A DNA stretch of 32,000 nucleotides from Chloroflexota bacterium (GCA_016219275.1 JACRBM010000076.1:18255-50254), one strand, 5' to 3'. Positions 21,701 to 31,304 are shown, counted from the stretch's first letter. Program-made: numbers and translations. The notes: generated from the letters alone by a model not told the origin.

Positions 21701-22636
21701 ATGAAGCGTTTCTCTTTTCCTCAACTAGTGTCTCTCGGCGCAATCCTCATCGCCTTCCTACTTTCTGCCTGTAGCGCCCCGCCAAGCCGATTGGATTTTC
21801 GTTTCAGCGATGTAGACCCTGCCTCAGCGGTGGCGTACTCGCCCGATGATACCAAACCCCTGCGCGTCGTCGTCGCCGCCGTCATCTCTCCGAAAGGGAA
21901 CGTTGAAAGTTACAGCGACCTGCTGGCGTACCTCGGACGCAAACTCAATCGGCGCGTCCAACTGGTGCAACGCCAAACCTACGCCGAAGCGAACGACCTG
22001 ATCAAAAGCGGCGATGTAGACCTGGGATTTGTCTGCACGAGCGCGTACGTCGTCGGTCAACGGGATTTCGGAATGGAATTGCTCGTCGCGCCCCAGGTCA
22101 ACGGGCAGACGGTGTACTATTCGTTGTTGATCGTTCCCACCGATAGCCCGGCTCGCGCGATGGCAGACATTCGCGGCAAAGTGTTTGCGTTCACCGACCC
22201 GATGTCGCTCACTGGACGTATCTATCCGACCTCGTTGGTGAAATCGCTGGATGGCTCGCCCGAACTATATTTCGCGCGCCTCTTTTTCACCTACAGTCAC
22301 GACAACGCGATCAAAGCCGTTGCCAACAAAGTCGCCGATGGCGCGAGCGTGGATAGTCTGGTGTACGATTATTTCGTCGCCCGTGACGCGACGATTGCCC
22401 AACGTACGCGCGTGATTCATCGTTCGCCGGCTTTTGGCATTCCGCCGGTCGTCGTCAATCCCAATCTCAGCCCTCAGCTGAAAGAAACGCTGCGGGAACT
22501 TTTCCTCCAAACGAGCGCCGACCCAGACGGCCAAACCATCCTGCGGAATTTGATGATCGAACGATTCGTCCAAGTATCCGATCGGATCTATGATTCAGCG
22601 CGCGCGCTCGAATTGCAAGTGAACACGGCGCAATGA
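21701..22636 (+). CDS. PhnD-like (phosphonate-binding family) extracytoplasmic solute-binding lipoprotein, sensor accessory
   Basis: Signal peptide with lipobox LLSAC. PhnD-type blocks LRVVVAAVISP, DLGFVCTSAYV, FAFTDPMSLTG and HDNAIKAV are present. The stop overlaps the kinase start (ATGA). Confidence 0.8.
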   Translation: MKRFSFPQLVSLGAILIAFLLSACSAPPSRLDFRFSDVDPASAVAYSPDDTKPLRVVVAAVISPKGNVESYSDLLAYLGRKLNRRVQLVQRQTYAEANDLIKSGDVDLGFVCTSAYVVGQRDFGMELLVAPQVNGQTVYYSLLIVPTDSPARAMADIRGKVFAFTDPMSLTGRIYPTSLVKSLDGSPELYFARLFFTYSHDNAIKAVANKVADGASVDSLVYDYFVARDATIAQRTRVIHRSPAFGIPPVVVNPNLSPQLKETLRELFLQTSADPDGQTILRNLMIERFVQVSDRIYDSARALELQVNTAQ

Positions 22637-24582
22637 AAATTTCAGGGTTCCGATCGGCGATCCGCCATTCGCCATTCGCCATTCGCCATTGGCTACTACG
22701 CCCCAGTATCCGCGCCAAAATTATGGGCATCGTCCTCGCGCTAGTGCTCCTCCTGGGCTTTGGCGTGACCTGGCAAGTGCGCGTCAACATGACGCACGCC
22801 TTGACCGCGCAATTGCAAGAGCGCGGCGTTTCCATCGCGCGCGACCTTGCCGCGCACTCGACCGATTTCATCCTCATCAACAACACCTATGCCCTGCACG
22901 AACTGTTGCAGGATTCAATTCGGAACAATGCCGATCTGCGCTATGCGTTCATCCTCGACGCGAACAATCGCGTCCTCGTCCACTCATTCGTCGCCGGGTT
23001 TCCGCGCGGGCTTGCCGAAAATAATTCCGTTGCGCCGACCGAGCGCGCCCACAGTGTTCTCCTCGAAAGCGACGAAGGGATCATTCACGACATCGCCACG
23101 CCGATTTTCGAGGGACGCGCCGGGATCGCGCGCGTGGGCTTGACCGAGCAAAGCGTTTATCGTGCGGTGGATGATTTGACCGGGAAGATGTTGCTCACGA
23201 CATTTGTCGTCTCTTTGCTCGGCGTCGGCGCGGCATACCTGCTCACGCTCATTCTCACGCGTCCCATTCTCGCGCTCGTCGGCGTCACGCAAGCCGTCGC
23301 GCGCGGCGATCTCTCGCAACGCGTCCCACCCTGGGGCGACGACGAGATCGGGCAACTCGCGACCGCCTTCAATCGCATGACGAGCGAACTCGATCAAACC
23401 CAACGCGCGATGTTGCGGCGCAATCGCGAACTCGCCGCGCTGAACGCGGTGGCGAACGCGGTCAACGCGCCGGCATCGCTTGCCGAGACGCTGGAACATT
23501 CGTTACGCGCCTTGCTCGATACGCTCGATTTGCCGGCGGGCTGGGTTTTCCTGTTGGACGACGACAGCAAGATCCAACTCACAACCTGGCTCGGCTTGCC
23601 GCGCGAAATCGGGCAACGCGAGGTCGCGACGGCATTTCATGGTTGCCCCTGCACGGTCGCGTTGACCGACAAACAATCGGTCGTGATCGCGCCGCTTCCT
23701 GAACGTTGTCCCTTGCATGATGGCAAACTGAGCGACGCGCGCGCTGTTGCGTCGCACGTCACCGTGCCGATTCTCGCGCGTGATCGCGTCCTGGGTGTGT
23801 TAGGCATCGCGAGCGCAGATCCAATGGCGTTTAGCAACGCCGAAGTGAAACTGCTCGAAGCCGTCGGGCAGGAACTTGGCGTCGCGGTCGAAAACGCGCG
23901 CTTGTGGGACGATCTACGCGAGAAAGAACGCGTGCGTGGACAGTTGCTCGAAAAAGTGATCGGCGCGCAGGAAGACGAACGCAAACGCATCGCGCGCGAA
24001 CTGCACGACGATACCGGGCAAGCGATCACCTCGTTGATGCTCGGCTTGCGTGCCGCGAGCGATACGAGTGAATTCGCGACGCGCGCGCGCCTCGATGCGA
24101 TGCGCGAGATTGCCGCGCAGACACTCGAATCGGTCAAGCGCATGGCGCGCGAACTGCGCCCCGCGCTGCTCGACGACCTGGGTCTTGCCGCCGCGCTCGA
24201 ACGTTACGTCGCGGGGTATCGCGCGAATTTTGGATTGAACGCGGATTTGCAAATGACCGGCTTTAACAACGGTCGTCTGTCCTCGGAAACGGAACTCGCA
24301 CTGTATCGCATCGTGCAAGAAGCGTTGACGAACATCGCGAAACACGCGCACGCGAAAAATGTCAGCATCGTCGTCGAGCGCAAGTCAAGCGCGGTCGTCG
24401 CCGTGGTTGAAGATGACGGACGCGGTTTCGATGTACGTGCGATTCTCGAATCGGCGCAAGAAGAAAGCAAACTGGGTTTGCACGGCATGCGCGAACGCGC
24501 GGAATTGGTTGGCGGACGCTTGCAGATCGAGTCGGCGATGGGCGCGGGGAGTAGTGTGTTTGTGGAAATTCCGATTGACTGA
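22633..24582 (+). CDS. Sensor histidine kinase (2 TM, extracytoplasmic domain, HAMP, GAF, HisKA_3, HATPase_c)
   Basis: HAMP segment ILALVGVTQAVARGDLSQRV...EIGQLATAFNRM. H-box ERKRIARELHDDTGQ (NarX/DegS type). N/G boxes EALTNIAKHA, DDGRGF and GLHGMRERAELVGG. Confidence 0.9.
   Translation: MKISGFRSAIRHSPFAIRHWLLRPSIRAKIMGIVLALVLLLGFGVTWQVRVNMTHALTAQLQERGVSIARDLAAHSTDFILINNTYALHELLQDSIRNNADLRYAFILDANNRVLVHSFVAGFPRGLAENNSVAPTERAHSVLLESDEGIIHDIATPIFEGRAGIARVGLTEQSVYRAVDDLTGKMLLTTFVVSLLGVGAAYLLTLILTRPILALVGVTQAVARGDLSQRVPPWGDDEIGQLATAFNRMTSELDQTQRAMLRRNRELAALNAVANAVNAPASLAETLEHSLRALLDTLDLPAGWVFLLDDDSKIQLTTWLGLPREIGQREVATAFHGCPCTVALTDKQSVVIAPLPERCPLHDGKLSDARAVASHVTVPILARDRVLGVLGIASADPMAFSNAEVKLLEAVGQELGVAVENARLWDDLREKERVRGQLLEKVIGAQEDERKRIARELHDDTGQAITSLMLGLRAASDTSEFATRARLDAMREIAAQTLESVKRMARELRPALLDDLGLAAALERYVAGYRANFGLNADLQMTGFNNGRLSSETELALYRIVQEALTNIAKHAHAKNVSIVVERKSSAVVAVVEDDGRGFDVRAILESAQEESKLGLHGMRERAELVGGRLQIESAMGAGSSVFVEIPID
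22663..22690 (+). repeat. Heptanucleotide tandem repeat (CGCCATT)x4 inside the 5' end of the kinase gene
   Basis: Four perfect head-to-tail copies read directly from the sequence. They fall in codons 11-20 of the kinase ORF. Confidence 0.9.
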
Positions 24583-31000: not shown

Positions 31001-31304
31001 TCCGAACGGCGAATGGGATCTGAAGAATGGACAAAAAGTTCCCATCGTCGGCAAGTTAAAAGTTGTGCAAGGGATTCGCCCCGGCGTCGTTTCGTTCCCG
31101 CTCGGCTTTGGACACTTTGCCTACGGTGGCGTGGACGTGACGATTGACGGCGCGGTGGTCAAGGGCGACGTGCGCCGCACACGCGGCGTGCACGCGAACG
31201 CGGCAATGCGCGTGGATCCGTACCTCAAGAATACGACGCTCGTTGATTCGTTCGGCGGCAGCGCCGTGTTCTACGATACCAAAGTCAAAGTGGTGAAGGC
31301 ATAG
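28026..31304 (+). CDS. Molybdopterin (bis-MGD) oxidoreductase catalytic subunit, Tat-exported, TtrA/SrdA-like; substrate unresolved
   Basis: Twin-arginine signal [21 protein letters not shown]. The N-terminal FS0 motif is CQQCNTNC...C. A candidate Mo-ligand Cys lies in [10 protein letters not shown]. The gene encodes 1092 aa. The start is at 28026 or, better spaced from AAGGAG, at 28032. Confidence 0.9.

Follow-up and report, generated by a model that had tools for sequence, protein, structure and literature searches.

The DNA analysed here, referred to as the window, comprises 32,000 nucleotides of one strand from a Chloroflexota bacterium (GCA_016219275.1 JACRBM010000076.1:18255-50254), and the locus in question (positions 21,701 to 31,304, + strand) encodes a putative arsenic-responsive three-component system followed by a three-subunit molybdenum oxidoreductase. 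An open reading frame (ORF) scan of the window, combined with profile searches, gave the gene order X-S-(TA)-R-B-C-A, in which TA denotes a toxin-antitoxin-like insertion. The first gene (arrX-like, 21701-22636) encodes a lipoprotein of the phosphonate-binding (PhnD) fold (PF12974, E 9e-58) with the lipobox LSAC, and is followed by an arrS-like histidine kinase (22633-24582), for which Pfam returned the order transmembrane segment (TM)-sCache_3_2-TM-HAMP-GAF-HisKA_3-HATPase, and by an arrR-like response regulator (25159-25806) with REC and LuxR/GerE helix-turn-helix domains of the NarL/FixJ class. The enzyme genes encode a four-cluster iron-sulfur (FeS) electron-transfer protein (B subunit, 26049-26840; Fer4_11), a membrane anchor of the quinol-oxidising NrfD/PsrC type (C subunit, 26858-27988; PF03916, E 3e-29) and a catalytic molybdenum-bis(pyranopterin guanine dinucleotide) (Mo-bisPGD) protein of 1,092 residues (A subunit, 28026-31304; NCBIfam), which carries the twin-arginine translocation (Tat) motif TRRDFLK. 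Seven genes at the coordinates reported in this text were strongly supported by the ORF scan and profile searches. An earlier note on this DNA had described the B-C-A order with its FeS, NrfD and Tat-signal 1,092-residue subunits, the ATGA coupling of a PhnD-fold lipoprotein to a two-TM HAMP-GAF-HisKA_3 kinase, and the divergence of the locus from arsR across a 216-bp region (21485-21700), all of which were confirmed.

When the lipoprotein was compared with all solved structures, its best relative was ArrX of Chrysiogenes arsenatis (6x6b; E 4.9e-57, 196 bits), with lower scores for AioX (118-122 bits), PtxB (79 bits) and E. coli PhnD (about 40 bits); by alignment, the lipoprotein was 39% identical to ArrX and 30% identical to AioX. 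The binding pocket of the AioX/ArxX/ArrX subfamily consists of Y88, C106, Y131, S161, S163, H192 and D210, of which the Cys is lacking in PhnD (PMC5908839). The corresponding residues of the lipoprotein, as aligned to AioX, are Y, C, Y, S, T, H and D, six of the seven being identical and the seventh changed from S to T. The single non-lipobox Cys in the peptide GFVCTSAY, to which attention had previously been drawn, is real and equals C106 of AioX. The window proteins were also compared with 82 distinct related loci, a sample biased towards relatives of the window; the pocket (Y, C, Y, S, S/T, H, D) was kept in all 30 binding-protein homologues found beside related enzymes, and all 30 scored higher against ArrX than against AioX. 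Purified ArrX binds arsenate with a dissociation constant of 1 uM and phosphate weakly, and by isothermal titration calorimetry (ITC) it did not bind arsenite, tetrathionate, thiosulfate, selenate, sulfate or antimonite; AioX and ArxX bind arsenite (PMC5908839). The lipoprotein is most likely an extracytoplasmic sensor of the ArrX type that binds an arsenic oxyanion, its predicted ligand being arsenate. Assignment to genuine phosphonate-transport PhnD with an ABC permease as partner, an outcome for which the earlier note had allowed, was rejected: the score of 196 bits for ArrX stood against 40 for PhnD, the PhnD equivalog model reached 133 bits against a cutoff of 261, no ABC permease or ATPase genes were present near the lipoprotein gene, and the Cys-containing pocket was present.

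The start codon of the kinase gene overlaps the stop codon of the lipoprotein gene as ATGA. Two hydrophobic segments were located in the kinase by hydropathy scan (residues 28-46 and 190-208), and the periplasmic loop was identified by Pfam as an sCache_3_2 domain (residues 54-182), which had previously been missed. The regulator (215 residues) consists of REC and GerE domains only, with no AAA+/sigma54 domain; it was 27.5% identical to TtrR and scored 78 bits against the TtrR model (cutoff 290). Neither the lipoprotein nor the kinase produced a BLASTP match to TtrS, the reference being the ttrRS-ttrBCA locus of a Klebsiella plasmid (L085). ArrR of C. arsenatis is FixJ-like and without an AAA+ domain, whereas AioR and ArxR are of the sigma54 type (PMC5908839). 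As a detached binding protein combined with a kinase and a NarL/FixJ-class regulator constitutes the published ArrXSR architecture, no chimera of Ttr and Aio elements is called for, and the previous description of the locus as a hybrid of Ttr-like and Aio/Arx-like features was abandoned, given that ArrX was the best relative of the sensor, that the regulator belongs to the ArrR class, and that TtrS and TtrR were undetectably or weakly related. On domain content and gene order, the lipoprotein, kinase and regulator are a predicted ArrXSR-type three-component system.

A LuxR-type regulator is indeed present after the kinase, as had been claimed, but the two genes are not directly adjacent: a DUF4258 toxin-like gene (24654-24908, + strand; PF14076, E 1e-10) and a DUF2283 antitoxin-like gene (24918-25142, + strand; PF10049, E 7e-17) intervene, both of them passengers with no part in the sensor. 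In L001, the closest relative, whose Mo subunit is 91% identical, a HicA and MqsA-like pair (5833-6817) occupies the same spot as this toxin-antitoxin region (24606-25142), and two further relatives (L005 and L007) have no insertion at the junction. It thus looks as if toxin-antitoxin modules have inserted repeatedly between the kinase and regulator genes. In another relative (L002, 1685-7259; 75% identical in A), the binding protein is followed by two successive kinase-regulator pairs and then by B-C-A, which suggests that the signalling module has been duplicated.

Between the regulator gene and B, a motif search identified three direct boxes, AGG(A/T)TTTCCC (25885-25965, + strand), with cores at 25888, 25920 and 25951, that is, 31-32 bp apart. 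The sequence AGGWTTTCCC occurred twice in this region, relative to 0.06 occurrences expected for the whole window. Across the related loci, the 350 bp preceding B showed an 18-fold enrichment of GGNTTT[CT]CC (45 matches in 25.4 kb upstream of B versus 120 in 1,244 kb elsewhere), with nearly all matches on the coding strand, at the same spacing, and mostly in loci with the sensor module. Each box forms part of an imperfect palindrome, the full unit of which in relatives is near TGTCAGG-N5-CCTGACA. The FixJ-type ArrR site predicted upstream of arrA in C. arsenatis, tcaggtttttccctga (PMC5908839), is strikingly like these boxes. The three conserved AGGNTTTCCC boxes are proposed to be binding sites of the regulator in the B-C-A promoter. 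A -10-like hexamer, TAGAAT, was read at 25986-25991, which would put the proximal box at about -44, where an activator site is expected. Next in the same segment (25986-26036, + strand), just before the Shine-Dalgarno sequence of B, comes a hairpin in the leader (25993-26036; -18.4 kcal/mol, z -2.3) that carries a U tract. A hairpin with a T-run was present at the same place in four relatives (L001, L005, L006 and L007), with the structure kept and the sequence not, and the hairpin matched no Rfam family; it could be a 5' mRNA stabiliser or an attenuator. Immediately 3' of the regulator stop codon lies a 27-nt inverted repeat (25814-25871; 89% complementary, 4-nt loop), which is AT-rich with no T run after it and therefore unlike a typical terminator.

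For the A subunit, the best curated NCBIfam model was TtrA (NF011567), with 445 bits (E 6e-133) against a cutoff of 1750; PhsA gave 187 bits, and ArrA (NF041714) 125 bits against a cutoff of 1600. Identity was 27.7% to Klebsiella TtrA, 31% to an Azospirillum TtrA-type protein (itself 47% identical to Klebsiella TtrA), 31% to the enzyme of a Citrobacter arsenatis plasmid, and 33% to a haloarchaeal homologue (Halomicrobium). The best solved structure was the polysulfide/thiosulfate reductase 2vpw. The cysteines of the FS0 cluster (C71, C74, C78 and C123) and C286, the predicted Mo ligand, were invariant within the clade of A relatives to which the protein belongs. A roughly 45-residue insertion (residues 196-240) is absent from true TtrA. 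For the B subunit, scores against the DsrO, TtrB and ArrB models were all below the cutoffs, and identity was 37% to TtrB and 39% to Citrobacter B. Its N-terminus has neither a Tat motif nor a signal peptide, whereas TtrB has SKRQFLQRLGVL, and in true Ttr both A and B carry a Tat leader (PMC12949373). The C subunit showed about 10 hydrophobic segments, relative to 9 for TtrC, by a crude hydropathy scan.

A also carries WG256R257(L/V/M)K, about 29 residues before C286, and this element was found clade-wide in alignments; the same position reads SGRI in Citrobacter arsenatis, and Klebsiella TtrA has no GR there. Arsenic-binding enzymes have been reported to contain a GR motif that true Ttr lacks (Degre et al., PMC12949373), and WG256R257 probably represents that motif. 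Neither the ArrA motif, (R/K)GRY, nor the ArxA motif, XGRGWG (PMC6549141), was found in A, which has WGRL instead. Among 82 representative clusters, the only ones without GR were those with 39% or more identity to true TtrA, so that the presence of GR excludes 'true Ttr' and does not constitute positive evidence for arsenate; being widespread in the superfamily, the motif was dropped as evidence for arsenic. By offset counting only, R257 falls within one residue of ArrA R165 (6cz7). Residues H282, T283, K295/A296 and Y313 of A align with ArrA H189, S190, K198 and Y210 and are presumably equivalent to them. These four ArrA residues we take to be the arsenate ligands, per Glasser et al. 2018. 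A is not a TtrA equivalog (28% identity; 445 bits relative to the cutoff of 1750). By profile scores and identities, A is assigned to the Ttr lineage as a predicted branch distinct both from true TtrA and from ArrA.

Two peptides characteristic of the clade, HGHTTVCQ and SQHTNG[FY]Y, were used to scan one genome per species, and at least 591 species were found to carry an A relative; relatives more than 60% identical number thousands of database proteins. The clade is mostly Chloroflexota, the other hosts being Rokubacteria/Methylomirabilota, Bipolaricaulota, Ignavibacteria/Kryptonia, Armatimonadota (Ca. Fervidibacter sacchari), Bacillota, Desulfobacterota, Omnitrophota and Caldimicrobium. Sampled clade members were at least 56% identical in A. 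Sister clusters, examined as 50%-identity representatives, were 43-49% identical, share the insertion of about 45 residues, and differ in the Cys motif, EHT(S/T)ICE(Q/L)SHH; they include Methanoperedens and Bathyarchaeia, and the members of 10 representative clusters were metagenome-assembled genomes (MAGs) of Methanoperedens, Bathyarchaeia and Propionibacteriaceae. No named Anaeromyxobacter, Geobacter or Melioribacter protein was among the best 120 homologues of any of three A queries (those of the window, the Ignavibacteriales locus L076 and the Deltaproteobacteria locus L068). The lipoprotein-kinase-regulator module was present in 30 loci, and in 28 of the 54 loci with at least 6.5 kb of sequence upstream of A. 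It usually lies directly upstream of B (downstream in three loci), and its hosts are Chloroflexota, a Bacillota MAG, a Deltaproteobacteria MAG and an Ignavibacteriales MAG. Many clade members (L003/L014, L018, L061 and others, from Rokubacteria, Bipolaricaulota, Fervidibacter and Ignavibacteria) gave no tblastn match to the NrfD subunit of the window, and the membrane anchor thus appears exchangeable within the clade; in a Rokubacteria locus, an unannotated gene of 504 codons is found upstream of B in place of an NrfD match.

The locus stands back-to-back with an arsenic resistance operon encoded on the - strand. Nearest to it is arsR (21122-21484; PF01022), which diverges from the arrX-like gene across the 216-bp spacer and is followed by arsC of the low-molecular-weight protein tyrosine phosphatase type (20577-21014; Pfam), an ArsE-type thioredoxin (20258-20506; Pfam, and NCBIfam redox_disulf_2/ArsE with 99.7 bits, cutoff 62), the ArsP permease (19218-20261; Pfam) and acr3 (18006-19085; Pfam, and NCBIfam acr3 with 430 bits, cutoff 283). 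In the spacer, the arsR promoter TTGACA-17-TATAAT (21528-21556) matches the sigma70 consensus at 12 of 12 positions, and a weaker extended -10 promoter faces the lipoprotein gene. A 15-nt inverted repeat (21627-21678; CAGGCAACCGATTTT / AAAATAGGTTGCGTG) flanks a promoter-like site before the lipoprotein gene and is a possible operator, whether of ArsR or for autoregulation. Beyond acr3 lies arsM (16696-17514; NCBIfam arsenite methyltransferase, 310 bits, cutoff 263), directly followed by hgcA (15682-16680; HgcA equivalog, 425 bits, cutoff 275; motif NVWCAAGK) and by its neighbour hgcB (15414-15692; 92 residues, two [4Fe-4S]), also on the - strand. The presence of this mercury-methylation pair inside the arsenic island of a Chloroflexi genome was unexpected. 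On the other side of the locus, 3' of A (31305-32000), there was no ORF of note and the GC content falls to about 50%. Three relatives (L001, L002 and L003) have an FmdE-domain gene at this position, L001 additionally moaA and a TauE gene, so that synteny breaks right after A. An Rfam scan of the window returned no riboswitch, the molybdenum cofactor riboswitch included, and no tRNA genes were found in the window.

Among the 82 related loci, acr3 was located within 10 kb in 11, and acr3, arsC or arsP in 12, relative to a chance expectation for acr3 of roughly 1%, an estimate that assumes one or two acr3 genes per genome of several Mb and stands in place of a measured control. The 12 ars-linked loci come from Chloroflexota, Rokubacteria and other lineages, and half of them were without the sensor module (for example in Rokubacteria, Limnocylindria and Dehalococcoidia).

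Taken as a whole, the locus probably represents, with a fair measure of doubt, an arsenate-inducible operon for an extracytoplasmic, quinol-dependent, Ttr-like arsenate reductase under ArrXSR control, arranged back-to-back with an ArsR-controlled resistance operon. An arsenic species as the substrate had been among the suggestions of the earlier note and gained support from the ArrX-type sensor and the ars neighbourhood; arsenate as both ligand and substrate, and the reductive direction of the reaction, we infer. In the proposed mechanism, the lipoprotein on the outer face of the membrane would bind arsenate in the conserved pocket and, once loaded, signal to the sCache domain of the kinase, which would phosphorylate the NarL/FixJ-type regulator; the regulator would then activate B-C-A by binding the three AGGNTTTCCC boxes that precede the FeS gene. 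A would be exported by Tat, and B, because it has no signal peptide of its own, would presumably be carried along with it. The NrfD subunit would oxidise menaquinol and pass electrons via the FeS clusters to the Mo-bisPGD, with Cys286 as ligand, and arsenate would be reduced to arsenite outside the cell. Arsenite entering the cell would be handled by the ArsR regulon (acr3, arsP, arsC and thioredoxin) and by arsM.

Several observations weigh against the arsenate reductase interpretation. The pocket residues are common to AioX, ArxX and ArrX despite their different specificities and do not set the ligand (PMC5908839), and since the phylogeny of the X module follows taxonomy, closeness to ArrX gives no more than a hint that the ligand is arsenate rather than arsenite. 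Nor is the GR motif diagnostic, owing to its wide occurrence in the superfamily, and it is followed by L, V or M where ArrA has Y. No ars gene was found within 10 kb in 70 of the 82 clade loci, and many clade members belong to sulfur-cycling thermophiles (for example Caldimicrobium and Thermanaeromonas). The enzymes of Anaeromyxobacter sp. PSR-1, Geobacter sp. OR-1 and Melioribacter roseus may lie in the sister clusters, at about 44-49% identity and with the Cys motif EHT(S/T)ICE(Q/L)SHH. A similarity of 44% has been reported between a Chloroflexota fragment and PSR-1 TtrA, and on this basis the PSR-1/OR-1 enzymes possibly form a sister cluster outside this clade. For M. roseus itself, the authors favoured a Psr-like enzyme as the main respiratory reductase (PMC5492636).

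The best surviving alternative, unlikely in our estimation, is that the enzyme reduces another oxyanion (selenate, as in an SrdBCA-like system, antimonate, thioarsenate, or thiosulfate/sulfite/polysulfide) and that the link to arsenic reflects co-regulation or chemical co-occurrence. The many loci without a nearby ars gene would fit, as would the shared B-C-A order and TtrA/SrdA lineage of SrdBCA, the occurrence of clade members in sulfur-disproportionating or thiosulfate-reducing thermophiles, the roles in thiosulfate disproportionation and sulfite reduction proposed for Ttr homologues, and the match of A to 2vpw. The dedicated sensor, however, is ArrX-like, and ArrX bound none of selenate, sulfate, tetrathionate, thiosulfate and antimonite by ITC; furthermore, linkage to ars genes recurs across phyla, and Limisphaera, a bacterium with a Ttr-like complex, is able to grow with arsenate and not with selenate. 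Less likely again is an anaerobic arsenite oxidase operating in the Arx direction, with arsenite sensed and electrons passed from arsenite to the quinone pool: AioX and ArxX belong to the same sensor subfamily and share its pocket, with the Cys to which arsenite bonds in AioX, aio and arx islands are also flanked by ars genes, and the Arr and Arx directions look the same from sequence alone, but all 31 sensors scored higher against ArrX than against AioX, the two references compared, the regulator is of the ArrR and not of the sigma54 AioR/ArxR class, A lacks XGRGWG, and the data published for Ttr homologues deal with As(V) reduction. A genuine tetrathionate reductase, that is, a ttrBCA orthologue with a split TtrS, which had also been suggested for the locus and for which the B-C-A order, the TtrA model, the NarL-class regulator and the automatic annotation of relatives by the Joint Genome Institute as 'tetrathionate reductase subunit A' could be cited, is highly improbable and largely refuted by the low score and 28% identity of A to Klebsiella TtrA (47% for the Azospirillum protein), the TtrS without BLASTP similarity, the missing Tat signal on B, the GR motif and insertion in A, and the failure of ArrX to bind tetrathionate.

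If the clade reduces arsenate, most of the capacity is overlooked when arsenic mobilisation in aquifers and rice paddies is surveyed with arrA as the marker gene. Independent genomic evidence for that view comes from the ArrX-like sensor and the conserved operator wired to the enzyme in dozens of genomes. A bolder conclusion, which we regard as speculative and rather doubtful, is that this clade of at least 591 species, dominated by uncultured Chloroflexota, Rokubacteria, Bipolaricaulota and Ignavibacteria, constitutes the main extracytoplasmic arsenate reductase among bacteria of soils and the subsurface, far wider than ArrA and with its own ArrX-ArrS-ArrR regulon and operator, or else acts on thioarsenate- or methylarsenate-like species handled by no characterised enzyme, given the adjacent arsM, arsP and hgcAB. 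The locus is of value for the breadth of its clade and for regulatory evidence on the substrate of this very large and uncharacterised group of enzymes, and it offers experimental handles on that substrate in the lipoprotein (binding assays) and the three-box promoter (reporters).

Among known systems, the ttrRS-ttrBCA of Salmonella and Klebsiella (Hensel et al. 1999; L085) shares with the locus the B-C-A order, a Tat-exported, Cys-ligated Mo-bisPGD subunit, an NrfD anchor and a LuxR-type regulator, but differs in that A is 28% identical, that the binding domain is fused within TtrS and unrelated by BLASTP, that TtrB has a Tat signal, and that the GR motif and the insertion are both lacking in true TtrA. 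SrdBCA of Bacillus selenatarsenatis, compared by description only, has the same gene order and lineage. AioXSR and ArxXSR have the same binding-protein subfamily and three-component logic, but their ligand is arsenite, their regulators are of the sigma54 AtoC type and the enzymes under their control are arsenite oxidases. In a plasmid of Citrobacter arsenatis (L084), an arsenate-respiring species, B-C-A is likewise divergent from arsR-arsDABC and the GR motif is present; the differences are an A subunit 31% identical with the Cys motif EHTNICELSHH, the lack of a sensor module, a B subunit with a signal peptide, and a C subunit with 9 hydrophobic segments. The arrangement of B-C-A divergent from arsR-arsDABC was also found on dozens of enterobacterial plasmids. 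A tblastn search of plasmids with an ArrA fragment as the query found nothing. ArrXSR-ArrAB of C. arsenatis (Badilla et al. 2018) has a detached ArrX with the same pocket, a kinase and a FixJ-like regulator not of the sigma54 type, but the enzyme there is a canonical ArrAB, which has the gene order A-B and a core without an NrfD subunit, and here it is Ttr-like with the order B-C-A.

The Ttr homologues of Anaeromyxobacter sp. PSR-1 and Geobacter sp. OR-1 are reported to be As(V)-induced and to have As(V) reductase activity (Muramatsu 2020; Tsuchiya 2019, as cited in PMC11462812), and their likeness to the present enzyme lies in a Ttr-like lineage distinct from true Ttr and Arr; their hosts are arsenate respirers (PMC11462812; PMC12949373). 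Chloroflexota ttrA transcripts were detected alongside PSR-1/OR-1-type homologues in arsenic-releasing paddy soil, where they rise with dissolved arsenic (PMC11462812). In Melioribacter roseus, 'ArrTSR' (the phosphonate-binding-like ArrT, a kinase and a regulator) lies directly upstream of a ttr-like locus, by arsRPCB (Gavrilov et al. 2017, PMC5492636), and ttrA is induced by arsenate (PMC5492636). The published primers for M. roseus ttrA encode the peptides PFEQAIQ and LRDADV, which span 41 codons end to end and agree in sequence and spacing with the clade and with its sister clusters, but not with true TtrA. The M. roseus regulator is sigma54-dependent (MROS_1070), as is the 450-residue regulator of an Ignavibacteriales locus (L076), whereas that of the window is of the NarL/FixJ type, and the host belongs to another phylum; a PhnD-like protein, a kinase and a regulator nonetheless stand upstream of a Ttr-like operon in both, adjoining an ars operon (arsR, arsP, arsC). 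The locus most likely belongs to a kind of Ttr-like arsenate reductase operon that has already been described in a few bacteria and that is widespread.

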